26,067 nucleotides of DNA from Helicobacteraceae bacterium (GCA_003250175.1 QKHD01000365.1:1-26067); one strand, 5' to 3'. Shown: positions 1-26,067, numbered from the stretch's first letter. Translations and numbers: made by a program. The notes: generated by a model from the sequence alone, not told the origin.

Positions 1-639
1 CATGCCCTTTTTGCCGGCGTGGCGTTTGCCGTATTCGACGATCAGCCCGTGGAACCGGGCGTAGACGGTGACAAGATCGCCGTAACCCTCCCAGCCCAAG
101 ACCTCTTCCAGGTTAGCGTCGATCCCTTCTTGCAGCCAGTTTTGCACCTCGTCGTAATGTTCAAAGGTGTAGCCGAAGGCTTCCAAAAGGCGGACGGTGT
201 AGTTGTCCACTACCATCGCCTCGCGTCCGAGCATGTAGCAGAGAATCGAATCCGCACTCTCCGGACCGATCCCCTTTTGCCGCAGCAGCCAGTCGCGACT
301 GACGTTTTCCATGAAGCTCTCCAGCGAACCGAAATCCTCCAAAATATTGCGGCAAAGAAGGATCAGGCGTTGGGCTTTCTGATTATACAGTCCGCTGGGC
401 ACGATGGCGCTGGCCAGACGCCACTGTTCGGCGGCAAGGAGTTCATTAAGGCCCAGCATACCGAGCCGCTCCATGTGGCCGATGGACTCCTGCACCTTCT
501 CCCAGCGGCTCTGCTGGGTCAGCACCACTTCGACCAAAATCCGAAAGGGGTCGTCATCGGGCCACCAGCGGGGGTGGGTGCTCCAATCAAAAAGCTTAAG
601 TTTTTCCAGGGCGGAGAGCAGGGCGAAGCTGTCGTTCAT
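1..639 (-). CDS. 3-methyladenine DNA glycosylase, HhH-GPD superfamily (MagIII-like); 3' end runs off the window
   Basis: Manual translation from ATG at 639 (ATGA overlap with the ymdB stop): MNDSFALLSALEKLKLFDWSTHPRWWPDDDPFRILVEVVLTQQSRWEKV...SGLYNQKAQRL...LLRQKGIGPESADSILCY..MVVDNYTVR. Contains WWP, the HhH motif (KGIGPESAD) and VVD. Open to position 1; absent from the ORF track. Confidence 0.85.
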   Translation of the reverse strand, partial: MNDSFALLSALEKLKLFDWSTHPRWWPDDDPFRILVEVVLTQQSRWEKVQESIGHMERLGMLGLNELLAAEQWRLASAIVPSGLYNQKAQRLILLCRNILEDFGSLESFMENVSRDWLLRQKGIGPESADSILCYMLGREAMVVDNYTVRLLEAFGYTFEHYDEVQNWLQEGIDANLEEVLGWEGYGDLVTVYARFHGLIVEYGKRHAGKKGM

Positions 640-1445
640 AGGCGATAAGCCTGCAGGGTGGTCTGGGCAGGCTCCTTGTCATAGGCTTTGATTTTAAAGG
701 CGTCGGTGCAGACTCCGCTGTCAAGATCGGCGACAATGGCCTGAAAAATGGTGCGGCAGGTTTTGGGAATGTCGAAGCTCTTTTTAATGCCCGTGGTAAA
801 ACGGTAGAGGGGCGCGTTTTTCTCCACCCCGATCACCCCGTCAAAGCAGCCCGTCAGCCCCACGTCGGTGACGTAGCCCGTGCCCTGGTGAATAAGCAGG
901 TCGTCGGTGCCCACGTGGGTGTGGGTTCCGGCAATGAGGCTGACCTGACCCGCCAACAGGTGGAGCATGCCGTTTTTCTCGCTGGTCGTTTCGGCGTGGA
1001 AGTCGATGAAGATGTTGGTGATGCCCTCATTCCGGAGGCGTTCGACCTCGGCCTTGGCCATGTTGAAGGGGTTTTCCACCATGCCCATGGAGTAGTGCCC
1101 CAGCAGGTTGATGACGGCAAGCTTTTCGCCCTGGGCTTCCAGCACCAACGTGCCCCGGCCGGGGAGTCCTTGGGGGAAGTTGAGGGGGCGGAGAATGGGG
1201 TAGCGGTCAAAGAGGGCGGTGATCTCTTTTTTATCCCAGGAGTGGTTGCCGCCGGTAAAGCAGTCGATACCACACGCCGCCAGCTCCTGGGTCGATTTGG
1301 CCGTCATGCCGAACCCGTGGGAGAGGTTTTCGCCGTTGACGATCACCAGGTCAATCCCCAGGTCGGCACGGAGGCGGGGCAGGTGGTATTTGAGCGCCTC
1401 ACGGCCCGGTCGTCCCACCACGTCGCCCACAAAAAGAATACGCAC
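636..1445 (-). CDS. ymdB: YmdB/TIGR00282-family metallophosphoesterase
   Basis: Motifs GDVVG, NGEN, TGGNH, DFHAETTSEK, GTHTHV, DVGLTG. GTG start with a GGGGG SD-like run. Confidence 0.9.
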   Translation of the reverse strand: MRILFVGDVVGRPGREALKYHLPRLRADLGIDLVIVNGENLSHGFGMTAKSTQELAACGIDCFTGGNHSWDKKEITALFDRYPILRPLNFPQGLPGRGTLVLEAQGEKLAVINLLGHYSMGMVENPFNMAKAEVERLRNEGITNIFIDFHAETTSEKNGMLHLLAGQVSLIAGTHTHVGTDDLLIHQGTGYVTDVGLTGCFDGVIGVEKNAPLYRFTTGIKKSFDIPKTCRTIFQAIVADLDSGVCTDAFKIKAYDKEPAQTTLQAYRL

Positions 1446-1468
1446 GCCGGCCCCCTTGTTTTTGCGTA

Positions 1469-1477
1469 ATTATAGCA
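1469..1477 (-). promoter_or_regulatory. Extended -10 promoter (TGCTATAAT) for ymdB-magIII
   Basis: Plus-strand ATTATAGCA reads TGCTATAAT on minus, a perfect TGnTATAAT about 24 nt upstream of the GTG. Confidence 0.7.
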
Positions 1478-1489
1478 CGGGGGACTAAA

Positions 1490-3040
1490 TCACTTTGCCT
1501 CGGCCGTCAATCTGCGCTGCCAGACGGAATGCAGGGCGTTGGCGGCCAGGCGTCTGGCGGTGAAATAGGCCAGAGCCGAAAAGCACAATCCAAAAAGCGC
1601 AGCGGCAAGATCAACCCCCAAGGCCGCGGCGGAACGGGGCGCCCAAAGCAGCTCCGGAAAGAGCGGAGCCAAAAGCGACTGCATCGGAACGGCAAAGCAG
1701 GCGAGCGCGATCAGCCCCAGCAGATCCACCGCCGCGTTCCCCGCCCCACGGTAAAAGCTCCAGGCGACGGCGGCGAGGAAGAGGGTGTAGTAGAGGGGAA
1801 AGTACCAATCCGTCACGCCCGACCCGCTCAGCCACTTGGTTGCGGCTAGAGCCACGGCGACACCCAGCACGCTGCCCAGCGTGACCCCGATGCTCAGTGA
1901 TGCCAAAGCGGCAACGTGGCGGTTGGGGGATTTTTTCTGTCGGGAGATGATCCAGAGCAGGTTGCCGCTGTAAAAGAGCACGGCACCCGCCAGACCCAAA
2001 ACGAAGTAGACCCAGCGGATCAGGTCACCCCCGAAGCTGCCGAAGTGCAGGGCAAAAAAGGTCCCCACCGTGGCGCCCCAGCCGCTTTCGCTTCCCGGAA
2101 GCATCTGCGCGTCCAGAACCGCTCCGGAGTAGGGGTCGATGATGGCAAACCCCTCCATGGCGCCACGCACCATGTAGCGAGGGTCGGTTCCGCCCATCCG
2201 GAGCATGGGGCGCTGACCGTCCAGTCCGCGGTAGAGCATGCGGGTGGGGGTAAACTCCGGAGCAAGCGCACGGACGTTTTCCAGTACGGTGGTCATGGAG
2301 GCCAGGGGCTTGGGCTGCGGCGGGGCAGCCGGGCGCGACTTGGCCTGGGGCGCTCGCTCGGGCATCACCACCTTGCCGAGAGCATCATAAAAAAGATCGT
2401 GAAAGGCAAAGACAATCACCGTCAAGGCGATGACAAAGTGAAAGGGGATCGACCCCAGACCCAGCAGAACGTGCACATCGAGCCAGCGGCGTTTTTCCCT
2501 TTTTTCGATCCGGAGGGCAAAGAGGTCGCGCCACCAGTTTTTCAGGATAATCACCACGCCGGAGACGAGGGCCAGAAAATAGAGCATGGAGGCGACCCCC
2601 ATGACATAGACCCCCAGATGGTCGTGGCCGTTTTCAAAACTTCCGGGGATTCCGGCGGTTTGGTGGAGCAGGTCGATCAGCTCCGCCAAACGGCTGGGCT
2701 CGGCCTGTGTGACCGCGATGGAGCCGTCCGGAGCGTAATCGGCGCGGAATGTTCCGTGGTCCCAGACCAGGGGGGCGACGGCGTTTTCCGTGGTGCGGAA
2801 ATCGACATTCAGCCCCTTGGCCGCATCGGGATAATGGGTAACGACGTGGGCGATGAGACGGTCCATATCCTGCAGGGAGAGGGGGGCGCTCTGGGGGGCC
2901 GGGGGTGTGGCCCAGCGGTCGATGGCGTCCTTAAACATGGTGAGGCTTCCGGCGTAAAAACCGATAAAGAGCACCAGTCCGGAGAGGATGCCCACCCAGG
3001 TGTGAAGGGTCAGGTAGCTGTACAGGGTTTGTGGTTTCAT
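1490..3040 (-). CDS. PepSY-associated TM helix protein (FoxB/PiuB-like iron-regulated membrane protein)
   Basis: 516 aa. LHTWVG at the N-terminus, His-bearing TM segments (LHQTAG, WLDVHVLLG, ALHFGSFGG), periplasmic DPYSG PepSY-like segment, many TM helices. Confidence 0.85.
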   Translation of the reverse strand: MKPQTLYSYLTLHTWVGILSGLVLFIGFYAGSLTMFKDAIDRWATPPAPQSAPLSLQDMDRLIAHVVTHYPDAAKGLNVDFRTTENAVAPLVWDHGTFRADYAPDGSIAVTQAEPSRLAELIDLLHQTAGIPGSFENGHDHLGVYVMGVASMLYFLALVSGVVIILKNWWRDLFALRIEKREKRRWLDVHVLLGLGSIPFHFVIALTVIVFAFHDLFYDALGKVVMPERAPQAKSRPAAPPQPKPLASMTTVLENVRALAPEFTPTRMLYRGLDGQRPMLRMGGTDPRYMVRGAMEGFAIIDPYSGAVLDAQMLPGSESGWGATVGTFFALHFGSFGGDLIRWVYFVLGLAGAVLFYSGNLLWIISRQKKSPNRHVAALASLSIGVTLGSVLGVAVALAATKWLSGSGVTDWYFPLYYTLFLAAVAWSFYRGAGNAAVDLLGLIALACFAVPMQSLLAPLFPELLWAPRSAAALGVDLAAALFGLCFSALAYFTARRLAANALHSVWQRRLTAEAK

Positions 3041-3049
3041 GAGGTCTCC

Positions 3050-3334
3050 TTAACCGACAACGCGGGTGAGCGTCAGCATGGCCAAGAGCACCAGGCTGGC
3101 GGGAAGATAGAGCTTGAGGGCTTTTGGGACACTCTCAAACACATAGACCGCCGACCAGATGGAGAGCCACAAGGGGGCGATCAGCCACATCACCAGCTGA
3201 ATCTTCACCGGGGCATCCGGAGCCTCCGGCGTCAGCCAGGCAAAGATACCGCTGAGAAAGAGTGCCATGGCAAAGCCCAGCACGATGCCGACAGCGCTCA
3301 GCCCCATCCAGGTGGCAAAGGATTTATTCGTCAT
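3050..3334 (-). CDS. Small 3-TM membrane protein of the type found beside PepSY-TM genes
   Basis: 94 aa, hydrophobic. Overlaps the upstream gene; an AGGAG SD for the PepSY gene follows it. Confidence 0.65.
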   Translation of the reverse strand: MTNKSFATWMGLSAVGIVLGFAMALFLSGIFAWLTPEAPDAPVKIQLVMWLIAPLWLSIWSAVYVFESVPKALKLYLPASLVLLAMLTLTRVVG

Positions 3335-3593
3335 GGCTGCCTCCCGCTTGGCGCCACAGCCCCAAAAAAGGAAGCAGCATGAAAAAAAACATGAGCAGGG
3401 TCAGGGTGATAAAAAAAGCACTTTTCGGGGTATAAAAGCTGCTCCAGGCCCAAAGGGAGAGGGCCGCAAGCACGAGGGAAACCCAGCGGGCGGGGTGGGC
3501 GGACAGCGGGGCGCTGAGCCACCGCTGTTTCGGAAAGCTGAGGTAGAAAAAAATCGCCGATCCCAGCGTGGAAAAAAAGGCAAATACAAGCAC
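3324..3593 (-). CDS. Small 3-TM membrane protein (DUF3325-like)
   Basis: 89 aa, hydrophobic, with YLSFPKQRWL. GTG start 5 nt after AAGGAG. First gene of the operon. Confidence 0.65.
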   Translation of the reverse strand: MLVFAFFSTLGSAIFFYLSFPKQRWLSAPLSAHPARWVSLVLAALSLWAWSSFYTPKSAFFITLTLLMFFFMLLPFLGLWRQAGGSHDE

Positions 3594-3594
3594 A

Positions 3595-3634
3595 TAGACT
3601 CCTTAATTAAATAGGAATAAAAAGGGGGAGTCTA
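3595..3634 (-). promoter_or_regulatory. 5' leader inverted repeat that can sequester the SD of the PepSY operon
   Basis: TAGACTCC (3595-3602) and GGAGTCTA (3627-3634) form a perfect 8-bp inverted repeat. On the minus-strand mRNA one arm includes GGAG of the SD. Confidence 0.5.
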
Positions 3635-3643
3635 ACATATAAT

Positions 3644-3662
3644 AATTTTGATAATCATTATA
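3644..3662. promoter_or_regulatory. Fur box overlapping a minus-strand -10 (TATAAT at 3657-3662)
   Basis: AATTTTGATAATCATTATA matches 15/19 of GATAATGATAATCATTATC, with 12 contiguous matches. Lies upstream of an iron-regulated-type operon. Confidence 0.8.
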
Positions 3663-3774
3663 GATATTGAAGCAGATTGTGGAAAAAATCTTTCTGCAAG
3701 AGGGTTTAAACCCCTTCCCAATTAATCTTTTGTGTGTAATAATGCATAGTGTTACACCATTAAAGGAGCACAAT

Positions 3775-4308: not shown

Positions 4309-4316
4309 TCCCTTCT

Positions 4317-4336
4317 TCCGCGCCTTCGGGTGCGGA
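4317..4336 (+). other. Stable C(UUCG)G hairpin between hpf and the DUF523 gene
   Basis: TCCGCGCC-TTCG-GGTGCGGA: 8-bp stem with one G-U pair and a UUCG tetraloop. No U-tract follows, so not a classical terminator. Confidence 0.6.
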
Positions 4337-4344
4337 GCCTTCCC

Positions 4345-4812
4345 ATGCATCAACCCCCACTTCTTATCAGCGCCTGCCTCCTTGGTGACAAGGTCAAATA
4401 TGACGGCGGCGACAATCGTCTCAGCATTGCCGATCTGAAACAGCTCTCTACCGTTGCGACCCTTTTTCCCGTATGTCCGGAGGTTTCCGGAGGGCTTGGT
4501 ACGCCCCGAATACCTGCGGAAATGCGGGACGGCCGGGTGATGAATGCGCAGGGCGAAGAGGTGACCGCCGCCTTTGAATCCGGAGCCGAAGCGGCCCTGG
4601 ATGTGGTGAAAGAGCACGGCATCAAGGCGGCACTCTTAAAGGAACGCAGCCCTTCGTGCGGGGTGCATGAAATCTACGACGGGAGCTTCAGCAAGAGCAA
4701 AATCGTGGGAAAAGGGGTGGCGGCTCTGGCCTTGGAAAGGGCAGGCGTACGGCTTTTTAATGAAAATGAAATCCCCGAATGTATAGAGTATCTACAACAA
4801 ATCAAGGAGTAA
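4345..4812 (+). CDS. DUF523 family protein (2-thiouracil desulfurase TudS-like, [4Fe-4S])
   Basis: Three Cys motifs ISACLLG, PVCPEV..GL.TPR.P.E and LKERSPSCG. Start set at ATG 4345, with GGAG 7 nt upstream. Confidence 0.85.
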   Translation: MHQPPLLISACLLGDKVKYDGGDNRLSIADLKQLSTVATLFPVCPEVSGGLGTPRIPAEMRDGRVMNAQGEEVTAAFESGAEAALDVVKEHGIKAALLKERSPSCGVHEIYDGSFSKSKIVGKGVAALALERAGVRLFNENEIPECIEYLQQIKE

Positions 4813-4815
4813 ATC

Positions 4816-5016: not shown

Positions 5017-5019
5017 GCG

Positions 5020-5715: not shown

Positions 5716-5716
5716 G

Positions 5717-6328
5717 ATGGCGACGATCATTCTTATGCGGCACGGCCGTGTCAAACTGACCATGCCGGAGCGTATTGCTTCGGCGGAGTTTCCCAAATGG
5801 GTCAAGGCCTATGATCATGCGGGTGTCTTTCCGGAGGCTCCGGAGGCGAGCCACCGGGCGCTTTTGGAGTCAGCCGGCGTGGTGTGCAGCGGGCTGACTC
5901 GCTCGGTGGTCTCCGCCCAGGTGTGCGGGATTACACCCCTGGGGCGTGAGAGCATCTTTAACGAAGCGAAAATCCCCTGGAAACGGATTCCGCTGGTTCG
6001 CCTGCGGCCCAAGACCTGGACGGGGCTCTTTCGGTTTTTCTGGTTTCTGGGCTTTCAAAATCACGCCGAATCCCTGACCCACGCCCGCCACCGCGCCAAG
6101 GTGGGGAGTGCCTATCTGGACAAACTGGCCAAGGAGAAGGGCAGCGTCACCCTGATCGGTCACGGCGTCATGAACCGTCTGCTTGCCTGGGAGCTTCGGC
6201 GCCTGGGATGGAAAGAGGTGCAAAAGCCGGGCCCCGAACACTGGGCTTATGGCGTTTACGAATACAAAGGAAAAAATAATGGGAAAACAATACCGCTACC
6301 TGAAAGAGATGGACCAGGCGTTCATTAA
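5717..6328 (+). CDS. Histidine phosphatase family protein
   Basis: MATIILMRHG (RHG motif) and LIGHG second His. Start set at ATG 5717. The 3' 50 nt overlap the next gene. Confidence 0.8.
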   Translation: MATIILMRHGRVKLTMPERIASAEFPKWVKAYDHAGVFPEAPEASHRALLESAGVVCSGLTRSVVSAQVCGITPLGRESIFNEAKIPWKRIPLVRLRPKTWTGLFRFFWFLGFQNHAESLTHARHRAKVGSAYLDKLAKEKGSVTLIGHGVMNRLLAWELRRLGWKEVQKPGPEHWAYGVYEYKGKNNGKTIPLPERDGPGVH

Positions 6329-6818
6329 AGAACAAAAACTCTTCTACATGGCCAGCTGCAGCGGCCAGGAGGTCAACCTCTCGCCCAAGGGCTACGACTC
6401 GATCCGGGTGATCGACCGCGAAACTCTGGTCTACATGGACTATCCCGGCAGCGGCAACCGCACCGCCCGCGACATTGCCGCCGGGGGCGACGTGACCGTG
6501 GTCTTTAACGCCTTCGAGGGCAAGCCAAAAATTCTGCGACTCTTTTGCAAAGGCGAGCTGATCAATCCGGAGCATCCGGAGTTTGGTACATTGGCCGCCG
6601 CCTTTAACGTGCCGCTGGTCTCCCTTCGGCGCCTCATTCGCCTGCATATTTACGCGGTGGAGTCGAGCTGCGGGATGTCGGTTCCCCGGATGCGTTACGA
6701 AGAAGACCGTAACGAGCTCAGGGACTGGGCCGTGAAAAAAGGAACAGACGGCTCTATCCACGAATACAACCGAGACCATGCGACCCCTCCGGATTTACAT
6801 CATCTAAAGGAAGAGTGA
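6279..6818 (+). CDS. Pyridoxamine 5'-phosphate oxidase-like FMN-binding protein
   Basis: FYMASC...VNLSPKG.D.IRV...YMDYPGSGN.TA...VFNAFEGKPKILRLFCKG and SSCGMSVP. ATG 6279 with AAAGGA SD. Confidence 0.85.
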   Translation: MGKQYRYLKEMDQAFIKEQKLFYMASCSGQEVNLSPKGYDSIRVIDRETLVYMDYPGSGNRTARDIAAGGDVTVVFNAFEGKPKILRLFCKGELINPEHPEFGTLAAAFNVPLVSLRRLIRLHIYAVESSCGMSVPRMRYEEDRNELRDWAVKKGTDGSIHEYNRDHATPPDLHHLKEE

Positions 6819-9053: not shown

Positions 9054-9070
9054 ATGCTATCCTTTATTAG

Positions 9071-9132: not shown

Positions 9133-9133
9133 A

Positions 9134-10132: not shown

Positions 10133-11959
10133 TTAGTATCCGGATAGAAGCCTCTTCGCCTCCTCCAAAATCTCCCCATCCTCTCGCATATCAAAATACT
10201 CAAAATGTTCTCCGCTTTGGGCGATGCCGTCGATCAGGTCTCCGGATTTTCTGAATTTGAGGTCCAGTTCCGCGACCTCGAAGCCGTTGGTCGTTTTCAT
10301 GAACTCGTTGAGCCGTTCGCTATTTTGTAGGTTGGTATATAAGTAGCAGTAGCCCTTGAGGCCCGTCCGGCTAACCCGGCCTTTGAGCTGGTGGAGGGTG
10401 GCGAGGCCCAGGCGTTCCGCTCCGGAGATGACGACGGTGGTGAGGCGCGGCAGGCTGATGCCGACCTCGACGACGGTGGTGGCCAGCAGGATGTTGCCCT
10501 TTTCTCTAAACTCCACCAGTACCTTTTCCTTGTCTTTGTCCTTGCCGTGAGTAGAGTAGACCCCTTCAAAATTTTTCTCCCAGAAGCTTCTGGCTTCGTC
10601 GATGCTCTGGTACTCGATATTTTCGCTGGCCTCCACCAGCGGGTAGATGACCAGCACCTGATGATTTTGGGCGATCTCGCTCCGGATGTGATCCAGCAGG
10701 GCTTTAAAGTCGGGCTTGCCGATGACGGCGGTGTCGATCGTCTTGGTAAAGGGAATCTGCCGGATAAAGGTGACGTCGATGAGCGTGCTCTCCACCATCG
10801 CCTGGGTGCGTGGGATGGGCGTGGCGGAAAACTGGAAGATGTGGGGGAGGGCCTTGTTGCCCTCCTGGCGGGTCATGAGGGAAAGCTCGTGGCGCTGCTT
10901 GGTGCCGAAGCGGTGCTGTTCGTCGATCATCACCACCGCCACCTCCGGAAGCTCCGTGTGCAGCAGGGCGTGGGTGCCGATGATGAGATCAGACGCCGCC
11001 AGTTCCTCTTTTTTGAGGTTGGATTTCTGGGTGTGGAGGGCAATGCGCATGGTCTCCGGTAGGTGCTTGTTAGCCTCTTCGAAGAGCTGGTTGGCGAGGA
11101 TGGTGGTGGGGGCCATGATGATCGCCTTGTTGGGGTGGGCCATGTAGGCCGCGGCCAGCATCACCATCGTCTTGCCGCAGCCCACGTCGCCGATGATGAT
11201 ACGGCGCCCCTGCTTGGTGCTTTGCATGTCGGTCTGGAGCTGGCGGATGGCGTGCTGCTGGTCGTCCGTGAGGGTGAAGGGGAGGTTTTGGATAAACCCC
11301 TCCGGATCTCGCGCCTCGGAAAAACGGGCGGGGTGCTCGCTCTTTTTCCCCTTCATCCGTTTGAGGTAGCGGTAGATCTCCGTAAACTTCACCGCACGCA
11401 GCGCCTCCGGAGCGAGGGCGCCGTTTTTCCGGAGGCGGTCCAGGTTCTCTTCCGTGGGGTTGTGCAGGTCAAAAAGGGTCTGGGCGTAGCGGGCGGGGAG
11501 GCCTTCGGCGGCCAGCGCCTCCGGAGTGAGGTAGCGCTGCATCAGCGCCACGACGCTGCGGTTTTGCAGCGGGGTTTTATACGACGGCACGATGCCGCCG
11601 ACCTGGGTGATGATCTTGGGCTGGACGATCTGAATCTGGGCACCAAACAGGCTGATCTTGCCCCGCAGAAAGTAGCGGCCGTTTTGGGCAAACATGCTGC
11701 GGTGAAAGCGCTTGGGGTTGAAAAAAACAGCGGTCAGAATGTCATCGGTGTTGTGGGCGTGGAGGGTGACCTTGAGCTGCTTGGGGGTAAAGGCGATCTG
11801 GGTGACGGTGGCGTCGACGGTGTTTTCCTCATGCATCCGGAGGTGGTCTAGCAGGCGGTTGTCGTCGTAGTGGTGGGGCAGAATCAGGGCCAGCCCCAGA
11901 AGGTCGCCCACGTGGAGTTTGGCGAGCTTCTCCCTCTCTTTGGGGTCGTCGGTGAACAT
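10133..11959 (-). CDS. recG: ATP-dependent DNA helicase RecG
   Basis: GDVGCGKT, MAPTTILANQ, DEQHRFG, SATPIPRT, ATTVVEVGI, LHQLKGRVSR, DLKFRKSGD. Confidence 0.95.
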   Translation of the reverse strand: MFTDDPKEREKLAKLHVGDLLGLALILPHHYDDNRLLDHLRMHEENTVDATVTQIAFTPKQLKVTLHAHNTDDILTAVFFNPKRFHRSMFAQNGRYFLRGKISLFGAQIQIVQPKIITQVGGIVPSYKTPLQNRSVVALMQRYLTPEALAAEGLPARYAQTLFDLHNPTEENLDRLRKNGALAPEALRAVKFTEIYRYLKRMKGKKSEHPARFSEARDPEGFIQNLPFTLTDDQQHAIRQLQTDMQSTKQGRRIIIGDVGCGKTMVMLAAAYMAHPNKAIIMAPTTILANQLFEEANKHLPETMRIALHTQKSNLKKEELAASDLIIGTHALLHTELPEVAVVMIDEQHRFGTKQRHELSLMTRQEGNKALPHIFQFSATPIPRTQAMVESTLIDVTFIRQIPFTKTIDTAVIGKPDFKALLDHIRSEIAQNHQVLVIYPLVEASENIEYQSIDEARSFWEKNFEGVYSTHGKDKDKEKVLVEFREKGNILLATTVVEVGISLPRLTTVVISGAERLGLATLHQLKGRVSRTGLKGYCYLYTNLQNSERLNEFMKTTNGFEVAELDLKFRKSGDLIDGIAQSGEHFEYFDMREDGEILEEAKRLLSGY

Positions 11960-11962: not shown

Positions 11963-13567
11963 CTACTCGAAGATGGCGCGCATCTGGCGGATCGTATCGC
12001 CGCGGGCGCGGAGCGTCCGAAGCATGGCGGCGTCATCCACATGGGGGAAGAAGAGGGCGCGGATAAAGTCGGGGTCGAGAATTTTGGCCTCGTTTTTATC
12101 GATGATCAGCAACACCGGCAGAGCCAGGGCGGCGGCGGGGTCGGCCTCGTAAATCCAGTTTTCATATTGGGGCGGCATGCTCAGACCAAAGAGCAGGGTG
12201 CCGGTGTCGAGCTTGAGGTCAAAGACGATGCGCTGGCTGGCATTGCCCAGCAGTTTGGTGAGCAGCTCTTTAAAATTCCCCTTGGCCACGGTGATCATCT
12301 GCCCGTAAGCCGGCGTGATCGTGGCGAGGGTCTCTTTGGAAAGGGCGATTCCGGAGGCGGGCTGCATCCGGGGGAAGGCCCGCTTGAGACGCACCAGATA
12401 GTTGCCCGCGGTGCGGTGCAGGTAGGCGTCACGGCGCACGGCGCGCTGGTAGTATTCGGGGTTAAGGAAGGTCGCCTTTGAGGCGGCTTCGTCGATCATC
12501 ACCCGCAGCACGCCGGCAAAGGCGTGGTCGAGTTTTCCGGAGATGCGGATCATCAGATCGTCCGTATAGACCAGCACCTTCAGCCCTGCGTCTTCAGCGA
12601 TGTAGTAGTCGCCGATCACCCGCAGACCCTGGGCTTCAAGCCCGCGGCGTACGGTGCGTTCCGTGGCGTTTTCCAGGGTGAAAAAGGCGTTGATTTCGTC
12701 CTTTTTCAGTTTGGGCGCTGGGGTCGGGCGGCGCAGAGTATGGGGGCGCAGGGCGACGCGGCGGTCGGTTTCGATCCCTTCAAAAAGCGCTTCGAGCTTG
12801 GCGTCATACGGCCCCAGCACCGGAGTCAGGTCGGCATCCTCCACGGCGGCAAAGCCCAGGTGCAAGGGGGCGTTTTTCTTGGTGCGGTAGAGGTAGAGCG
12901 TCGTGGGGGCGAGGGGAGCGAGGTGCGGGTCCATGGCGTAGAGGGCCTGGAGTTTAGCGGGGTCGAGCAGGGTGTAGAGCGCGGCATGGGCGACCCCCTT
13001 GATCCGGACGGGGCGGTAGTCGGTCAGGATGATCCCGGCCTCTTGCAGGCGGACGCGAAGGGCGGCGTCGATGTCGTCCGGATCGGTGCCCTTGGGGAGG
13101 GTGATCGTGGTCTCCTTCAGGGTTTGGGCGGGGCCGAATTCGGGCAGGTTGTAGGGGTCGCCGGTGGCCTGCTCCAGATCATTCCGGAGGGTATCGGCGC
13201 GGTTGGTTCCCAGCCAGGCCCCGCCGTCGCCAAAGCCGATGGCGGCCAGGCAGGTGGGAAGAAGGGCGAGATTTTTCGGGTCGTCCGCCAGCAGCTTGGC
13301 ATGTTCTTCGGAAACGAATCGGCTTTCGAGATAGAGCTGTTTGGGGGCGTTGTGGCCTAGGAGCGGAGCGTAGTTGTGGGGCGTGCTGTGGGTGGATTGG
13401 GCAACCAATTGTTTGAGCTCCGGATCGCCAATCTGCGCGGCGATACCGTGGGAGCTGGCGGCCAGGGGGAGCTCCACCGACGGTGCGGCGGCCGAGGAAC
13501 AGGCGGTGAGAATCAGGGTCGCGCCGAAAAGCAGCGCCGCCCTTTGCCAGTCTGGTCGAGCTCCCAC
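11963..13567 (-). CDS. Hypothetical 534-aa lipoprotein with degenerate DUF302-like repeats
   Basis: Lipobox LTAC (Cys23). Repeated 'helix-DP-x(3-5)-L-x-P-hydrophobic strand' segments (LLADDPKNLALLPTC, LYAMDPHLAPLAPTTLYLY, IYEADPAAALALPVLLII). Domain call is from recall only. Confidence 0.6.
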   Translation of the reverse strand: MGARPDWQRAALLFGATLILTACSSAAAPSVELPLAASSHGIAAQIGDPELKQLVAQSTHSTPHNYAPLLGHNAPKQLYLESRFVSEEHAKLLADDPKNLALLPTCLAAIGFGDGGAWLGTNRADTLRNDLEQATGDPYNLPEFGPAQTLKETTITLPKGTDPDDIDAALRVRLQEAGIILTDYRPVRIKGVAHAALYTLLDPAKLQALYAMDPHLAPLAPTTLYLYRTKKNAPLHLGFAAVEDADLTPVLGPYDAKLEALFEGIETDRRVALRPHTLRRPTPAPKLKKDEINAFFTLENATERTVRRGLEAQGLRVIGDYYIAEDAGLKVLVYTDDLMIRISGKLDHAFAGVLRVMIDEAASKATFLNPEYYQRAVRRDAYLHRTAGNYLVRLKRAFPRMQPASGIALSKETLATITPAYGQMITVAKGNFKELLTKLLGNASQRIVFDLKLDTGTLLFGLSMPPQYENWIYEADPAAALALPVLLIIDKNEAKILDPDFIRALFFPHVDDAAMLRTLRARGDTIRQMRAIFE

Positions 13568-17608: not shown

Positions 17609-17616
17609 TTTTTATA

Positions 17617-19140
17617 ATGTTCGACAATACCTACGTACAACAACGAATCGAAAAAGCAGAGCAGCTGCGCGAACTGGGGCTTAACCCCTACGACAACCGA
17701 AGCGAGCGGGACACCACCATCGCCCAGTACAACGAGACCTTCGCCTACGTGGCGGACCTGGACGAGAACAAGCGCGACGAGAGCAAGATCGCCTGTGTCA
17801 GCGGCCGGATCAAACTGCTGCGCCTCATGGGAAAAGCGGCCTTCGCCAAGATCGAAGACCAAAGCGGCAGCCTGCAGGTCTACTACAGCAAAGACGCCAT
17901 CGGCGAAGAGTGGTTTAACAACGTCAAGAAACTGGTGGAAGTGGGCGACATCATCGAGGTCAAGGGCTTCCCCTTCGTAACCAAAACCGGTGAACTCTCC
18001 CTGCACGTCCAGGAGCTCAAACTCCTGACCAAGTCCATTAAGCCGCTGCCGGAAAAATTCCACGGCCTGACCGATATCGAGCTGCGCTACCGCCAGCGCT
18101 ATCTGGATCTGATTATGAATCCGGAGGCCAAAGCGGTCTTCATGACCCGAAGCCGCGTGGTTACGCTGCTGCGCCGTTTCTTTGAAAGCAAAGGGTTTTT
18201 GGAAGTCGAAACCCCCATGCTGCACCCCATCGCGGGCGGTGCCAATGCACGCCCCTTCATTACCCACCACAACGCCCTGGATGTGGAACGCTACCTCCGG
18301 ATCGCTCCGGAACTCTACCTCAAGCGTCTGATCGTGGGCGGTTTTGAGGCGGTGTTCGAAATCAACCGGAGTTTCCGAAACGAGGGGATGGACCATACCC
18401 ACAACCCCGAGTTTACGATGGTGGAGTTCTACTGGGCGTATCGCACTTACAAGGACCTGATCAACATCACCCAGGAGATGTTTGACATGCTGGTTCGTGA
18501 GCTGAATCTGCCCACGGTACTGCCGTACGATGATATGGAGATCGATCTCTCCTCGCCCTTTGCGACCTACACCTATGATGAGGCGCTGGTAAAAGTGGGC
18601 GGTATCGACGAAGCGGTACTGAAGGATACCAACGCCATGAAAGCCCTGCTTAAAACCAAGGGGATCGAACTCAAAGGCGAGGTCAGCGCCGGCAAGCTCA
18701 AAGCCGAGCTCTTCGACGAATTCGTCGAAGCCAAGCTGATCAACCCGACCTTTGTCACCAAGTTCCCCGTGGAGATCTCTCCCCTGGCACGCCGAAGCGA
18801 CGAAGACCCCAGTCTGACGGACCGCTTCGAGCTGTTTATCGCCGGGAAAGAGTTTGCCAACGGCTTCAGCGAGCTGAACGACCCCATCGATCAGCACGGG
18901 CGTTTTGAGGATCAACTCAAGGCCAAGGCGGGCGGTGATGATGAGGCCCACGAGATGGATGAAGACTACATCAACGCCCTGAGCTACGGGATGGCTCCAA
19001 CAGCCGGACAGGGAATCGGGATCGACCGACTGGTGATGCTGCTGACCAATCAGCAGTCCATCCGCGACGTTCTGCTCTTCCCGGCCATGAAGCCCCTGCA
19101 CAACCAATCCAATGAAAACGAAAAGGAAAACGAGCAATGA
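17617..19140 (+). CDS. lysS: Lysyl-tRNA synthetase (class II)
   Basis: OB-fold ([16 protein letters not shown]), [34 protein letters not shown]. Start MFDN at 17617. Confidence 0.97.
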
Positions 19141-20384
19141 CCTACCTTCAACAAGAAGATAAAGCGGTTTTTGACATTATCGAAAAGGAGCTCGATCGCC
19201 AGCTTCACCACCTGGAGATGATCGCCAGCGAGAACTTCACCTTCCCGGCTGTAATGGAAGCCATGGGTTCCGTATTTACCAACAAATACGCCGAAGGGTA
19301 TCCGGCCAAACGTTACTACGGCGGCTGTGAATTTGCCGACCAGGTGGAGCAACTGGCCATCGACCGTCTCTGTGCGCTGTTTGACTGCAAATTTGCCAAC
19401 GTCCAGCCCCACTCCGGATCCAGCGCCAATGCGGCGGTCTATACTGCGCTGCTCAAACCCTACGACAAAATCCTGGGTATGGACCTCTCCAACGGCGGTC
19501 ACCTGACCCACGGTGCGAAGGTGAGCTTCTCCGGACAGAATTATGAAAGCTTCTCCTACGGTGTCGATGAAAACGGCCTGATCAACTACGATAAAGTAGC
19601 CGAGATCGCCAAGATCGTTCAGCCCAAAATCATCGTCTGCGGTGCCAGTGCATACTCCCGTACGATTGATTTCAAACGGTTCCGCGAAATCGCCGACAGC
19701 GTCGGTGCGATTCTGTTCGCCGACATCGCCCACATCGCCGGTCTGGTCGTGGCGGGTGAACACCCCAGCCCCTTCCCCTATGCGGATGTGGTCAGCAGCA
19801 CCACCCACAAGACCCTTCGCGGACCACGCGGCGGTATCATCATGACCAACAACGAAGAGATCGCCCAGAAGATTAACAAGTCCATCTTCCCCGGTATGCA
19901 GGGTGGCCCACTGGTGCACGTCATCGCCGGTAAAGCAGTCGGTTTCCACTACAACGCCCAGCCCGCATGGAAAGAGTACGCCAAGCAGGTCAAAGCCAAC
20001 ATTAAGGTTCTGGCAGACGTTCTGATTGCCCGCGGTTATGACATCGTCAGCGGCGGTACGGACAACCACTTGATTCTGGTCTCCTTCATCAACAAGCCCT
20101 TCTCCGGAAAAGACGCCGACCTGGCCCTGGGCAACGCCGGTATCACCGTGAACAAAAACACCGTTCCGGGCGAACACCGCAGTCCGTTTGTCACCAGCGG
20201 GATCCGAATCGGTTCTCCGGCGCTGACCGCGCGGGGTATGAAGGAAGCGGAGTTTAAGATAATTGGTGAAAAAATAGCCGATGTTCTCGACGATATCGAA
20301 AACACCGAGCTGCAAAAGAAGATTGCCGCCGAGCTCAAAGCCCTGGCCAGCAACTTCATCATGTACGAAAAATCGATTTATTAA
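19137..20384 (+). CDS. glyA: Serine hydroxymethyltransferase
   Basis: [50 protein letters not shown]. Confidence 0.97.
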
Positions 20385-20411
20385 GAAACAACCAAAGGGA
20401 CAGGATAAGGT

Positions 20412-20954: not shown

Positions 20955-20980
20955 TCAATCAACCCAACAAAGGTCGAAAC

Positions 20981-21727: not shown

Positions 21728-21734
21728 TATCTCG

Positions 21735-23153
21735 ATGATTCATCACAAAAAGATCTTTATCGATCAGTTCACGCCCATCGCCCAGTACCATAAACTCAAG
21801 CAGGCCTTTCCCCAGGAAACGGCCCTGCTCTTTGAAAGCGTGGTCAACAACGACCGGGGCAACTTCAGCTACATTGTCATCGGTGCGAGAGAAAAGCTCT
21901 GGCACCAGGACGGTGTGAGCTACCATCAGGATGAAAACGGCGTTGTTTCGACCGTCGACGCCAACCCCCTGCAGTTTCTCAAAACCTACTACCAACAGAT
22001 CGACCAGGAAGCCTACGACGACCTGGCAAAAAGTATCGAAGTGGGCTTCGTGGACGGTTTTATCGGCTACATCGGCTACGATATGGTCAAGGAGTTTGAA
22101 CCCTCCTTGAAACGCAGCATGGAAGGGCTCGATGACGCTGCCCATGTTCCCGATCTGGAGCTGATCCGGCCCAAGCTGATTGTGGCCTTTTCCCACAAGA
22201 CCTCGACCCTGACGCTCATCAGCTCCATGAAAGAGATGGAAGAGCGGTTTGACAGCATCGAAACGCTGCTCACCTCCAGCTACGACTTTCTGCCCCTCAA
22301 GGCGGCGGTCAAGCTGGGTGAAGGGCAGTTCAGTTTTGACAAAGAGCAGTTTTTCGACCTGATTGCCAAGTCCAAAGAGATGATCAAAAGCGGGGATGTC
22401 TTCCAGATTCTGATGTCCAACCGTTTCGTGCAGCCGGCCAAGGTAGACCGCCTCAGCTTTTACCGCGTTGTCCGGAGTAAAAATCCTTCGCCCTATCTTT
22501 TTTTGCTGGAGTTTGACGAGTTTGCCATTGCGGGGAGCTCTCCGGAGGTTATGGTTCAGCTCATCGACGGACGCATTCTGCTGCGACCCATCGCCGGAAC
22601 CCGCAAGCGGGGTAAAACTCCGGCGCAGGATAAGGCTATGGAAGAGGAGATGACCGCCGACGCCAAGGAGATCGCCGAGCACGTCATGCTGGTCGATCTT
22701 GGCCGCAACGACGTGGGCCGTGTCGCCAAACCGGGAACGGTCAAGGTGGATGAGATCATGCGGGTTGAACGCTACTCCCACGTTATGCACATGGTGAGCG
22801 ACGTGACTGCGACGATCGATGAGAAGTACGACATGTTCGACCTTTTCATGGCGACCTTCACCGCCGGGACCATGACCGGAGCGCCTAAAGTACGTGCCAT
22901 GGAGCTGATTGCCGAGTTGGAGCAGCTCAAGCGCGGCTTTTATAGCGGCTCCATCGTGCACTTTGGCTTCAATGGCAACATGGACAGCGCCATCACCATC
23001 CGCTCCGCTCTCATTCAGGAAGATCAGATCATCTTCCATGCCGGAGCCGGGGTGGTTGCCGACAGCAAGCCCGAGCTCGAGTTTATTGAAGTAAAAAACA
23101 AACTGGCCGCCAACATCGCTAGCTTTCAGGATCTTTTGGACATCGAGGACTAA
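21735..23153 (+). CDS. trpE: Anthranilate synthase component I
   Basis: NPSPYLF, SSPE, RPIAGT (TrpE-type; PabB has PIKGT), MLVDLGRND, HVMHMVS, TGAPK. No adjacent trpG. Confidence 0.85.
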   Translation: MIHHKKIFIDQFTPIAQYHKLKQAFPQETALLFESVVNNDRGNFSYIVIGAREKLWHQDGVSYHQDENGVVSTVDANPLQFLKTYYQQIDQEAYDDLAKSIEVGFVDGFIGYIGYDMVKEFEPSLKRSMEGLDDAAHVPDLELIRPKLIVAFSHKTSTLTLISSMKEMEERFDSIETLLTSSYDFLPLKAAVKLGEGQFSFDKEQFFDLIAKSKEMIKSGDVFQILMSNRFVQPAKVDRLSFYRVVRSKNPSPYLFLLEFDEFAIAGSSPEVMVQLIDGRILLRPIAGTRKRGKTPAQDKAMEEEMTADAKEIAEHVMLVDLGRNDVGRVAKPGTVKVDEIMRVERYSHVMHMVSDVTATIDEKYDMFDLFMATFTAGTMTGAPKVRAMELIAELEQLKRGFYSGSIVHFGFNGNMDSAITIRSALIQEDQIIFHAGAGVVADSKPELEFIEVKNKLAANIASFQDLLDIED

Positions 23154-23945
23154 ATGCGTCTATTCGCCATCTACGGAAATCCGGTCGCCCACTCCAAGTC
23201 GCCCCGTCTGCACAACGCCACCTTCTCCACCCTGGGGATGACGGATTGTGCCTACACCCGCTTTTTGCTGGCAGAGGGCAGCGGGCTGGTGGCCCATTTC
23301 CGTCAGATGGAGCTCTCCGGAGCCAATGTGACGGTTCCTTTCAAGGAAGAGGCCTTCATGCAGTGCGACGAAGTACGCGGTCTGGCCAAGGAGATCGGTG
23401 CCGTCAATACGTTGGTAAAAGAGGGCAATAAAGTCATCGGTTACAACACCGATTGCAGCGGCTTCATGGAATCAATCCGGGAGTTTGAAGGGGTGGAGAG
23501 CATCCTCATCCTGGGCGCGGGGGGAACGGCCCGCGCCGTCGCTCTGGCTCTCAAGGAAGCGGGCAAGTCGGTCTGCCTGATCAACCGCAGCGACAAACGC
23601 CTGGAATTTTTTAAAGCCCAGGGGTTTGAAACCGCCACCTGGGATCACTTCACTCCGAGGGCCTTCGACCTGGTGGTCAATACCACCAGCGCCGGGCTCA
23701 GCGACAACTCCCTTCCCGCTCCGGTCGACCTGCTTAATCAGCTTCTGCCCCAAGCCAAGTACGCCTACGACGTCATCTACGGGAAAGAGCCGCCCTTTTT
23801 GGAGATGGCCATGCGCTACGGGCTGATTATGAAAGACGGCAAAGACATGCTGGTCGCCCAGGCGGTCCACGCCTTCATGCACTTTACCGGTCTGGAAAAT
23901 CACGACCGTATTTTGAAGATTATGGAGAAAACAATCGAGTTATGA
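23154..23945 (+). CDS. aroE: Shikimate dehydrogenase
   Basis: GNPVAHSKSP, GANVTVPFKE, GAVNT, GYNTD, LGAGGTARA, VNTTSAG. Confidence 0.95.
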   Translation: MRLFAIYGNPVAHSKSPRLHNATFSTLGMTDCAYTRFLLAEGSGLVAHFRQMELSGANVTVPFKEEAFMQCDEVRGLAKEIGAVNTLVKEGNKVIGYNTDCSGFMESIREFEGVESILILGAGGTARAVALALKEAGKSVCLINRSDKRLEFFKAQGFETATWDHFTPRAFDLVVNTTSAGLSDNSLPAPVDLLNQLLPQAKYAYDVIYGKEPPFLEMAMRYGLIMKDGKDMLVAQAVHAFMHFTGLENHDRILKIMEKTIEL

Positions 23946-25099
23946 CAGAGATTTTAGACGAATACCGCTACCTATTTGCCCACCTGAACGAACAGATCAT
24001 CTGGGCCGAGTGGATCGGCGCGATCGTTTTTATTCTTTTCTTTATTCGATTCCGCAATTTGGTAACCCGCTGGGTTTTTGGTATTTTGGAGTTTATCGCC
24101 GGAAAGACCAAGACAAATCTGGATAATCGTATTCTTGCCAACAGCAAAGAGGCCATGGCCTACATGGTCGGTCTCTTCGGCTTTTACGGCGGGGTTTCCA
24201 TTCTAACCCTATCGACTTCGCAACAGGCGGTTGCCTCCCATCTCATTGCTACCCTCTTTTATGTCGGATTTGCCTGGTTCTTGTTTATTTTAGTGGACAT
24301 CTTCGCCATGGAGATCAGCCGCACCCTCTCCGGAAGCCGGAAAAAAGTTCGTGGGGAGATGGTCAACTTTATTATCAAGTTCCTCAAATCGATTGTTGTT
24401 TTAGCTCTTTTGATTGGGGTGCTGGACGAGTGGGAATACAATGTCTCCGCCATTATCGCCTCTTTGGGGATCGGTGGTTTGGCCTTCGCGTTGGCGGCCA
24501 AGGATACCATCGCCAACCTATTTGGCAGCATGATGATCCTCTGGGACAAGCCCTTCGAACACGGCAACTGGATCGATGCGGCGGGCACAGAAGGGACGGT
24601 CGTGGAGATCGGCCTGCGTTCGACCACGATCCGTACCTTTGCCAACGCCCTGGTGACGGTACCCAACTCCAAGCTGGCCAATGAGACCATTACCAATTGG
24701 TCCAAGCGGCGTATCGGCCGCCAGATCAAGATGCAGATCGGGGTGCGTTACGACTCCAAACCCAGTGACATTAAAAACGCCATCGAGGCAATTCGGAGCT
24801 ATCTGCTCCACCACGAAGGTATCTCCAAGGAGATTGATCTGGAAGACAACAACCCGCTTATCTCCCGCAACGACTACGAGGGCAACAAGGACACGCTCCT
24901 GGTGCATCTGGACAGTTTCGGGGAGAGCAGTATCAACATTCTGATCTATTGTTTCAGCGTGACGGTCAACTGGTTTGAATTCATGGTCCTCAAAGAGGAA
25001 GTCATGTACAAATTCATGGAGATTATCGCCGAAAACAATCTGGATTTCGCCTTCCCGTCCCAAACGATCTATCTGGAACAGCAAGCGCAGACAAAGTAA
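23942..25099 (+). CDS. mscS: Small-conductance mechanosensitive channel family protein
   Basis: ASLGIGGLAFALAAKDTIANLFG, KPF..G.WI, GTVVEIGLRSTTIRTF, VPNS.LAN..I.NWS, FAFPSQT. Confidence 0.92.
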   Translation: MTEILDEYRYLFAHLNEQIIWAEWIGAIVFILFFIRFRNLVTRWVFGILEFIAGKTKTNLDNRILANSKEAMAYMVGLFGFYGGVSILTLSTSQQAVASHLIATLFYVGFAWFLFILVDIFAMEISRTLSGSRKKVRGEMVNFIIKFLKSIVVLALLIGVLDEWEYNVSAIIASLGIGGLAFALAAKDTIANLFGSMMILWDKPFEHGNWIDAAGTEGTVVEIGLRSTTIRTFANALVTVPNSKLANETITNWSKRRIGRQIKMQIGVRYDSKPSDIKNAIEAIRSYLLHHEGISKEIDLEDNNPLISRNDYEGNKDTLLVHLDSFGESSINILIYCFSVTVNWFEFMVLKEEVMYKFMEIIAENNLDFAFPSQTIYLEQQAQTK

Positions 25100-25107
25100 G
25101 GAAACCT

Positions 25108-26067
25108 ATGCCGATTAAACGAGTACAAGAAGCGATCGAAGAGATCAAAAAAGGGAACATGGTCATCATGGTCGATGACGAAGACCGCGAAAACGAAGGG
25201 GATCTGGTCTATGCCGCAACCTTCACCACGCCGGAGAAGGTCAACTTCATGGCCACGGAGGCCAAGGGTCTGATCTGTGTCGCCCTGGAAAAAGAGGCGG
25301 CCAAACGGCTGGAACTCAACCCCATGGTGCCGCGTAACACCTCTTCATATGAGACCGCCTTTACCGTCTCCGTCGACGCGGCTACGGCGAGCACCGGGAT
25401 TTCCGCCTTTGAACGGGACATGACGATCCGCCTGCTGGCCGACCCCCAGAGCCGTCCGGAGGAGCTGGCGCGACCGGGGCATATTTTCCCCCTCATTGCC
25501 AAGGACGGAGGCGTTCTCAACCGGATCGGCCATACGGAAGGTTCCGTTGATCTGTGCAAGCTGGCCGGTCTGGCCGGCGTGGGCGTGATCTGCGAGATCA
25601 TGAAAGAAGACGGCACCATGGCGCGCCGGGATGATCTGGAAGTATTTGCCAAAAAACACAACATGAAGATTGTCCAGATCTCCGACCTGATCGAATACCG
25701 CATGCAGCGCGAATCGCTGATTAAAGAGACATCCAGAGAGACCATCAGCTTTTTCGGCAAGGATGTGGAGAAGGTGGTATACACCGACCATCTGGGCCGC
25801 CACCACACGCTGATGCTCTTTGGCACTCCCCAGGCCAAGGCCAATGTGAAGTTTCACAACGTCAGCAAGGACGTAGATTTCCTGCAAAACGATGAGCAGT
25901 TCAACGGGCTGCTGGGGGCGGTGGATTATCTGAAGGAAAAGGGCGGCGTGCCCCTGCGCGCTAACGTGACCGGCGGTATGGGACGTTGTGCGATGACGGG
26001 CCGCCTCGCGGTCCTGTTGGTGGCTGTCGCGTCCCTGTGGGCGTTCAGCCCCGGCGTGCGCGCGCAG
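25108..26067 (+). CDS. ribB: 3,4-dihydroxy-2-butanone-4-phosphate synthase with GTP cyclohydrolase II-like C-domain; native sequence appears to end near 25950
   Basis: Manual translation: MPIKRVQEAIEEIKKGNMVIMVDDEDRENEGDL...TAFTVSVDA..STGISA.ER...RPGHIFPL...GHTEGSVDL...CEIMKEDGTMARR. No stop in the window; not in the ORF track. Confidence 0.92.
   Translation, partial: MPIKRVQEAIEEIKKGNMVIMVDDEDRENEGDLVYAATFTTPEKVNFMATEAKGLICVALEKEAAKRLELNPMVPRNTSSYETAFTVSVDAATASTGISAFERDMTIRLLADPQSRPEELARPGHIFPLIAKDGGVLNRIGHTEGSVDLCKLAGLAGVGVICEIMKEDGTMARRDDLEVFAKKHNMKIVQISDLIEYRMQRESLIKETSRETISFFGKDVEKVVYTDHLGRHHTLMLFGTPQAKANVKFHNVSKDVDFLQNDEQFNGLLGAVDYLKEKGGVPLRANVTGGMGRCAMTGRLAVLLVAVASLWAFSPGVRAQ
25951..26067 (+). 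other. Foreign-looking high-GC segment encoding a Sec signal peptide (probable chimeric junction)
   Basis: 85/117 GC (73%) versus 83/150 (55%) in 25801-25950. In-frame ATG 25993 gives MTGRLAVLLVAVASLWAFSPGVRAQ. Confidence 0.65.

Follow-up and report, generated by a model that had tools for sequence, protein, structure and literature searches.

TCCGGA as a highly iterated palindrome in a hydrothermal-vent member of the Campylobacterota

The puzzle of highly iterated palindromes (HIPs) has stood for 30 years, and in the literature searched they are described only for cyanobacteria. The published cases, HIP1 (GCGATCGC) and a few alternates, are all cyanobacterial and reach 500-2,500 copies per Mb; a cognate methyltransferase accompanies each one that has been studied (PMC4390886). 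Here, the hexamer TCCGGA is described from a stretch of 26,067 nucleotides (QKHD01000365.1:1-26067 of assembly GCA_003250175.1, Helicobacteraceae bacterium; hereafter the window) and from the metagenome-assembled genome (MAG) to which it belongs, a member of the Campylobacterota recovered from a hydrothermal-vent metagenome. The word occurs 4,791 times in the 2,058,182 bp of this source genome (2,328 per Mb, 2.3 per kb, one per 430 bp), an observed-to-expected ratio (O/E) under base composition of 8.17 that ranks first among the 4,096 hexamers; weakly extended to CTCCGGAG, it has accumulated and apparently been preferentially kept chromosome-wide in this one vent lineage. According to the literature searched, this is a new phylum and a new word for iterated palindromes.

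The sporadic alternate HIPs, namely GGCGCC in Calothrix PCC 7103, rCCGGy in Oscillatoria PCC 10802 and GCsGC, each confined to a single species (Elhai 2015, PMC4390886), match the present case best. Like them, TCCGGA is a GC-rich 6-bp palindrome, the top hexamer of its genome, comparable in copies per Mb, found in one species and Type II-looking, and it has the CCGG core of rCCGGy; it differs in phylum and word, and in that neither a methyltransferase nor MutL was found in an assembly that is 82% complete. The model of Elhai needs a G-meC dinucleotide (PMC4390886), a rule that is not applicable here, as neither TCCGGA nor CTCCGGAG holds GC. HIP1 itself is conserved and periodic (PMC5861425), its abundance correlates with transformation-related genes (PMC13756078) and it increases transformation by a factor of 7 to over 100, with a partial dependence on methylation (10.1101/2024.09.10.611283). 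HIP1 and TCCGGA both occur in every frame as well as between genes and override codon preference, TCCGGA also appears to be retained above background, and transformation or recombination is now a leading idea of function for HIP1 also. However, HIP1 is an 8-mer of nearly a whole phylum, enriched 15-300x, for which methylation and periodicity have been shown, whereas TCCGGA is a 6-mer (weakly an 8-mer), enriched 8x (27x for CTCCGGAG) in one species.

Known uptake sequences, the uptake signal sequences (USS) of the Pasteurellaceae and the DNA uptake sequences (DUS) of the Neisseriaceae, are 9-12 nt long and non-palindromic. They resemble TCCGGA in density (about 1-2 per kb), in occupying genes in all frames, in flanks that are weaker than the core and in lineage specificity, and genes for a type IV pilus-like system, ComEA, ComEC and DprA are present in the source genome; they differ in being asymmetric and in forming dialects in related species, whereas TCCGGA is a perfect palindrome of 6-8 bp with no counterpart in its congener. 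At CCWGG in E. coli, very-short-patch repair by the Dcm/Vsr pair causes a modest enrichment via T:G to C:G correction alone. TCCGGA is likewise a recognition palindrome that site-directed repair could enrich; however, no Vsr or m5C methyltransferase was detected in the source genome and the T-variant precursors are the rarest. TCCGGA is also a classic Type II recognition word (BspEI/AccIII/Kpn2I), and the targets of Type II restriction-modification systems would be expected to be avoided or neutral in the host genome, in contrast to the enrichment without a detected methyltransferase seen here. To our knowledge, the RAATTY word of Campylobacter jejuni acts via a methyltransferase and has not been reported as hyper-abundant; it belongs to the same phylum and to the same class of short palindromic 6-mers, and serves self-recognition. 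C. jejuni imports RAATTY-methylated DNA only (PMC10046745). Literature searches on TCCGGA over-representation or Nitratifractor methylation returned nothing relevant, in agreement with the initial annotation of the window, which knew of no description for Campylobacterota.

TCCGGA across the source genome

The source genome (G000) comprises 417 contigs (mean ~5 kb; GC 54.5%), with an estimated completeness of 82% and contamination of 4%, and its 2,214 called genes cover 92% of the sequence; contig C275 corresponds to the window. This uncultured organism is known from vent metagenomes only, its best named GlyA match is "uncultured Nitratifractor sp." (81% amino-acid identity), and related strains are also present in a marine-sediment study. 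In the window, exactly 70 copies of TCCGGA were counted (the first at 260-265 and the last at 25455-25460; about one per 370 bp), as compared with a zero-order expectation of 7.8 and with 10.7 +/- 3.5 copies in dinucleotide-preserving shuffles (maximum 23; 0/100 attain 70). The initial annotation had estimated about 70 against about 8, and its plus-strand counts of 15 GCCGGA, 7 ACCGGA and 6 CCCGGA are exact. Its description of the word as a HIP1-like highly iterated palindrome is upheld genome-wide, with the top rank among hexamers, enrichment in every frame and between genes, and an O/E above the limit of about 2-fold that it had named.

Under a maximal-order Markov model, in which the embedded pentamers absorb the signal, the O/E is still 1.63. 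When both strands are scored, TCCGGA reaches 9,582 (4,791 sites x 2) and the other 15 NCCGGN words 848-1,641, which is baseline (0.7-1.2x) both within genes and between them. The 18 words that differ from TCCGGA by one mismatch range over 0.7-1.05x, TCTGGA/TCCAGA excepted (1.64x). The enrichment belongs to the complete hexamer, all six positions being sharply specified. Synonymous codons were permuted within each gene, preserving the protein and the per-gene codon usage, and this codon-preserving shuffle, proposed in the initial annotation as a check, did not reproduce the enrichment: 4,458 coding copies were observed vs 785 +/- 24 (5.7x, z = 156), by which codon or dipeptide bias is ruled out as the cause. 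All three frames are enriched over the shuffle, as had been claimed from a few examples, with 1,442 sites in TCC-GGA (7.3x), 779 in nTC-CGG-A (3.1x) and 2,237 in nnT-CCG-GA (6.6x), and intergenic DNA carries 330 copies vs 33 expected (10x), each other intergenic NCCGGN word occurring 25-54 times. The suspected use of disfavoured codons was also confirmed, in that GGA is a minor glycine codon (14%), of whose occurrences 24% fall within a TCCGGA site. Ser-Gly dipeptides are written TCC-GGA in 41.7% of cases vs 2.7% in the orthologs of the only other species of the genus (G001), and x-Pro-Asp/Glu places are written nnT-CCG-GAn in 65% vs 6.1%; over the three frames, 42%, 25% and 65% of the protein-compatible places are filled in G000 vs 3-8% in G001. 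That TCCGGA is a DNA-level word overriding codon preference is fully supported.

The base at position -1 is C in 51% and G in 10% of half-sites, with the complement at +6, and among intergenic half-sites C accounts for 54% and G for 8% (background 23% each). The extended word CTCCGGAG, with 1,183 copies vs 57 copies of GTCCGGAC (a 20-fold preference), is the top 8-mer of the genome, and no flank conservation was found beyond +/-1 of the G000 sites. As the flank rule is alike in coding and intergenic DNA, the preference acts on DNA itself, and it suggests a protein footprint of about 8 bp. Over the short range covered by these contigs, well below the 10-90 kb scale of quasi-periodic HIP spacing, site spacing is near-geometric, the sole over-represented short spacing being 9 bp (34 vs ~11 expected); given this spacing and the lack of a conserved flank, a dispersed repeat or miniature inverted-repeat transposable element (MITE) bearing the word was rejected.

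Every contig of at least 5 kb carries 0.66-4.0 TCCGGA per kb. Stretches with at most one copy per 5 kb occur solely at C204:1-9115 (ATP-synthase operon, parB) and C378:10001-19059 (ribosomal-protein operon), both of lower GC (~47%), and since these two poorest stretches are the host's own operons and all contigs of that size bear the word, a contamination or binning artefact was likewise rejected. The word gives way in the operons of highest expression, in which codon selection is expected to act most strongly, and the force behind it is of limited strength. Similarly, the most conserved genes hold 1.78 sites per kb at a saturation of 0.39, as compared with 2.4-2.6 per kb and 0.45-0.48 for other genes, and the genes without a G001 homologue, 387 in the whole-genome comparison, are as site-rich as core genes. 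Independent Logan contigs from the source runs reproduced site-carrying stretches with 0 differences, and in four runs the organism was confirmed present, with few variants listed and 0 inside a TCCGGA.

Relatives and the origin of the sites

G001, the only other species in the GTDB genus of G000, was taken at nearly whole-genome scale (statistics on 2.51 Mb) and contains 672 TCCGGA (O/E 0.98, rank 1,707 among hexamers). No hyper-abundant word of 8-12 nt was found in it, and a different "dialect" word in this sister species was rejected at these lengths. Five metagenome contigs that are nearer to G000 than G001 is (LysS 83-85% identical to G000) carry 18 TCCGGA in 53 kb vs 14.5 expected. In a comparison of 18 family species, with ACCGGT as the control word of equal composition, the TCCGGA:ACCGGT ratio is 8.2 in G000, 1.0 in G001 and 0.19-3.9 in the other members: TCCGGA is 2.4-5x rarer than ACCGGT in G002, G005, G009 and G017 (ratio 0.19-0.41) and 2.5-3.9x commoner in G008 and G016. 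By inference from these ratios, TCCGGA-reading enzymes or restriction-modification systems may circulate in the family. The highest CTCCGGAG count among 400 sampled genomes of the phylum is 81 vs 1,183 in G000. No comparable enrichment was found in the 18 family species, the 400 phylum genomes or the five nearer contigs; the enrichment is species-specific and was derived since the split from the nearest sequenced relatives. A 3-5x TCCGGA excess in distant metagenome contigs proved unspecific, the entire NCCGGN family being raised there. Among other palindromes of the genus, GATATC is over-represented 4.45x in G001 and 2.3x in G000, and the CTAG-containing ACTAGT, TCTAGA, GCTAGC and CCTAGG stand at 0.03-0.11x in both.

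A pattern scan of species genomes for clustered TCCGGA returned mostly random matches in GC-rich genomes. Its densest locus (L399, 77 sites in 8 kb of the Verrucomicrobiae chromosome OY970130.1) was rejected as a case of genome enrichment, being an array of clustered regularly interspaced short palindromic repeats (CRISPR) with a period of ~72 and a repeat that contains CTCCGGAG, in a genome enriched ~1.5x overall. A second TCCGGA-rich clade, unrelated to G000, shows a weaker and less specific enrichment. Its first member, G424 (contig DYOA01000029.1; L352, L482), is a 2.6-Mb sulfidic-cave MAG deposited as "Leptospira biflexa", with 5,425 TCCGGA (2.1 per kb) at a GC of ~0.43, and the enrichment is shared by its nearest relative G431 (DYLW01000030.1; L483), also a sulfidic-cave MAG deposited as 'Leptospira biflexa'. 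TCCGGA ranks first among the hexamers in 21.8 kb of G424 (O/E 12.8), other CCGGA-containing words are raised too, and the C/G flank preference is absent, CTCCGGAG making up 4% of sites. TCCGGA conservation between G424 and G431 is 61-75%, equivalent to the background of 64%. Two m5C methyltransferases, one beside an Mrr/AspBHI-like nuclease, are common to G424 and G431 and lacking in 5/6 non-enriched kin; there is no TCCGGA inside these two genes. A solitary PF01555 methyltransferase of the pair was rejected as the cause, since many non-enriched kin possess orthologues of it at 61-72% identity, so that this clade-wide enzyme is not correlated with the enrichment. No homologue of the G424/G431 methyltransferases was found in G000.

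The origin of the sites was followed in a codon alignment of 1,129 G000-G001 ortholog pairs (1.02 Mb, 73.7% nucleotide identity), the polarity of changes being taken from the non-enriched state of all relatives rather than from an outgroup alignment. TCCGGA common to both species accounts for 99 of 2,243 aligned G000 sites (4.4%). Conversely, 99 of 266 G001 sites (37%) are kept in G000 vs 21% for hexamers generally, a figure from one enriched genome only. In the 628 one-step cases, the G001 state differs at every one of the six positions, mostly by transversions, the commonest states being TCCCGA (117), CCCGGA (99) and TCCGGC (75); the transition precursors of the Vsr type (TCTGGA, TTCGGA, TCCAGA, TCCGAA) contribute 25/628. 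With regard to the depletion of one-mismatch variants, which the initial annotation had put forward as a check, variants are indeed drained relative to G001 (TCCCGA/TCGGGA 0.42x, CCCGGA/TCCGGG 0.53x, TCAGGA/TCCTGA 0.58x), with the exception of TCTGGA/TCCAGA (1.15x), the sole such one-off variant; this exception can be explained by coding constraints. Amino acids differ at sites in 48-59% vs a background of 39-50%, and protein-compatible places are 5-18% more numerous in G000 than in G001. It is the outcome that is favoured, not a type of mutation: sites were formed in place by every kind of substitution, most new copies being synonymous and some protein-changing.

For HIP1, whose age is phylum-wide, the emergence of such a word is obscured. 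The present case is young and isolated, with ~4,200 extra copies and none in a syntenic congener at ~74% identity, so that the gains can be read base by base. The constraints thereby gained are the use of all substitution types, no Vsr and no Vsr spectrum, MutL not found, no methyltransferase in the assembled 82%, an 8-bp flank rule identical in and outside genes, and a drive to which only the genes of highest expression are resistant.

Candidate explanations

Searches of the 82%-complete assembly for DNA methyltransferases of the families PF00145 (m5C), PF01555 (N4/N6), PF02086 (D12) and PF02384 (N6) and for Vsr (PF03852) found none, and identical searches do detect methyltransferase and Vsr families in control genomes. 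A scan of all open reading frames (ORFs) for (D/N/S)PP(Y/F/W) and PC..ENV motifs returned just PPK, PrmC, RsmD, an HD protein and a small MTS-family methyltransferase. A genome without any main-family DNA methyltransferase is unusual for a bacterium, especially for Campylobacterota; as the assembly is merely 82% complete, such an enzyme could be missing from view, and the genes either lie in the missing 18% or are truly absent. MutL_C was found in 0/6 genomes of the group (G000, G001, G002, G003, G018 and G019, two of them 99% complete), which makes a MutS-MutL pathway unlikely, and a weak MutS_I match is present in G000 and G001 (ORF of 880-987 aa). Both repair-based models are therefore without their parts. 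The orphan TCCGGA methyltransferase with Vsr-biased repair envisaged in the initial annotation is not borne out, neither gene family having been found in this assembly and the Vsr-type precursors being few; a site-binding protein acting in uptake, recombination or chromosome organisation, its other suggestion, is now the better candidate. Both G000 and G001 encode a secretin, a prepilin cluster, ComEA, ComEC and DprA. Five prepilin-type genes were found in G000, of which four are clustered on contig C402, and in the syntenic cluster of G001 (C3:17-22 kb) the prepilin-type genes, minor pilins included, are 49-56% identical; ComEC (C197:4519-5772) is 44% identical, as compared with a protein median of 68%, and the immediate neighbours of the pilin and ComEC genes are mostly better conserved (54-88%). 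This divergence of the pilins and ComEC beyond the median is only suggestive.

An uptake or recombination drive, exerted by a protein that reads, directly or perhaps through a methyl mark, a symmetric word of about 8 bp, is our tentative explanation, held with less than even confidence. What we infer beyond the accumulation itself, namely the reader, the methylation and the bias in uptake or recombination, would work as follows. A protein with a Type II-like symmetric recognition surface of 6-8 bp would read TCCGGA in natural transformation and/or homologous recombination, either directly or via a methyl mark set by a methyltransferase encoded outside the 82%-complete assembly; word-bearing DNA would be preferentially taken up or recombined, and alleles gaining a TCCGGA copy would spread through the population by molecular drive. 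The molecular-drive argument has been made before for USS/DUS, for methylated RAATTY of C. jejuni and, recently, for cyanobacterial HIP1. In favour of the drive are an enrichment that follows the word and not composition, its recent and derived origin, gains through any substitution, the high saturation, the apparent retention of sites, a force that gives way in the ribosomal-protein and ATP-synthase operons, the uptake genes of G000, the precedents of C. jejuni and HIP1, and the weakness of the repair-based rivals. It is possible, although on balance doubtful, that TCCGGA is a palindromic self-recognition word for uptake or recombination that was born de novo in one species and, methyl-marked or not, swept the genome through molecular drive. 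Several points weigh against a drive of this kind. The gene-content comparison with G001 brought forward no candidate reader protein. G001 has the same uptake and recombination genes and no hyper-abundant word, so that gene presence explains nothing and the drive has to suppose an altered specificity. The uptake sequences described so far are longer and non-palindromic, and a 6-8 bp palindrome discriminates foreign DNA ~10-40x only. The methyl-dependent version needs a methyltransferase, of which there is none in the assembly. Genes without a homologue in G001 are as full as core genes, which fits any long-acting in-situ process, and selection for a chromosomal binding function predicts identical sequence patterns.

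A methylation-linked repair ratchet, Elhai or Vsr-like, in which an orphan TCCGGA methyltransferase would mark new sites and mismatch repair or a short-patch system would fix the mutations that complete them, abundance being a by-product, seems rather unlikely. It would agree with the cognate methyltransferase of every cyanobacterial HIP studied (PMC4390886), with a Type II word sharply specified at six positions, with the swing of TCCGGA:ACCGGT from 0.19 to 8.2 in the family, suggestive of circulating enzymes, and with the oddity of a methyltransferase-free assembly whose genes may sit in the missing 18%. However, neither a methyltransferase nor Vsr was found in G000, MutL_C was not found in 6/6 group genomes, and the G-meC of the Elhai model has no GC to act on in TCCGGA or CTCCGGAG. 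The second TCCGGA-rich clade speaks on both sides, since it has two m5C methyltransferases that 5/6 non-enriched kin lack, but these genes carry no TCCGGA, have no homologue in G000, and the sites of that clade are conserved at background. The Vsr-type form of such repair was rejected, given that PF03852 was not found in the 82%-complete assembly, the 25/628 precursors of the Vsr type and the fact that TCTGGA/TCCAGA is the sole undrained variant.

Selection for a chromosomal function, by which the word would bind an abundant nucleoid or chromosome-organising protein under weak per-site selection (the idea of Xu, Lawrence and Durand for HIP1), is unlikely. The apparent retention of sites above background (37% vs 21%), their even distribution over all contigs with near-geometric spacing, the 8-bp flank preference identical in coding and intergenic DNA and a density limited where codon selection is strongest would all be expected from it, and conservation and periodicity are reported for HIP1 (PMC5861425); yet it must explain ~4,200 extra sites in one species when syntenic congeners do without them, its per-site selection must work on thousands of sites simultaneously, and there is no candidate protein for it. 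We regard as very unlikely a methylation-independent uptake signal, a pure USS/DUS analogue read by a pilin or ComEA-type receptor. It shares the evidence for the uptake or recombination drive, accords with the failure to find a methyltransferase in G000, and could draw on the minor pilins (49-56%) and ComEC (44%) being among the more diverged proteins, but pilins diverge fast generally, the word, being short and a palindrome, resembles no known uptake sequence, and the only known uptake rule in the phylum, that of C. jejuni, is methylation-dependent (PMC10046745). An artefact of assembly or binning, of codon or dipeptide bias or of a dispersed repeat would be invited by a fragmented MAG of 417 contigs with 4% estimated contamination; its probability is practically negligible in view of the synonymous shuffle, the 10x intergenic enrichment, the lack of flanks beyond +/-1, the presence of the word on all contigs of at least 5 kb, the site-bearing stretches reproduced in independent run contigs and changes that respect protein coding.

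If TCCGGA is a self-recognition word, G000 and G001 would be the first pair for dissecting the birth of a HIP/USS-type system, and the cyanobacterial HIP puzzle would be tied to transformation in an unrelated phylum. As the word is a BspEI/Kpn2I site, a test for methylation by digestion or long-read sequencing is simple, and it constitutes a near-perfect barcode for binning host DNA from vent metagenomes.

Sites and genes of the window

The copies of TCCGGA in the window start at positions 260, 1031, 1653, 2123, 2197, 2256, 2509, 2727, 2978, 3216, 4101, 4476, 4486, 4579, 5196, 5268, 5596, 5658, 5830 and 5839; then at 6566, 6575, 6788, 6980, 7192, 7291, 7539, 8881, 8925, 8992, 9264, 9851, 9899, 10139, 10241, 10421, 10681 and 10944; at 11301, 11406, 11428, 11520, 11836, 12350, 12536, 13003, 13077, 13183, 13419, 13614, 13666, 13756, 15164, 15812, 16801 and 17284; and at 18120, 18296, 18306, 19413, 19530, 20103, 20654, 20864, 21409, 22471, 22541, 23316, 24329 and 25455. 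They lie in spacers and in housekeeping genes, which according to Pfam assignments include a recG-like helicase, an M16 peptidase, an mqnC/cofH-like radical SAM gene, lysS, glyA, anthranilate synthase, MscS, fabF and others. The examples cited in the initial annotation are exact. The doublet AATCCGGAGCATCCGGAG at 6564..6581 (plus strand), read AAT-CCG-GAG-CAT-CCG-GAG, holds two sites with a spacing of 9 bp, both in nnT-CCG-GAn, the frame used most often. Within lysS (Pfam), the doublet CTCCGGATCGCTCCGGAA at 18295..18312 (plus strand) combines the site at 18296 in frame nTC-CGG-A with that at 18306 in nnT-CCG-GA, and glyA (serine hydroxymethyltransferase, SHMT, by Pfam; plus strand) carries three in-frame TCC-GGA (Ser-Gly) at 19413, 19530 and 20103 (19413..20108). 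Two further doublets follow from the position list, one at 4476..4491 with sites 10 bp apart and one at 5830..5844 with sites 9 bp apart. A 534-aa ORF on the minus strand (11966-13567), flanked by the recG-like helicase and M16 peptidase genes, has no Pfam match; its position is conserved in relatives, where the counterpart has a weak DUF302 match only.

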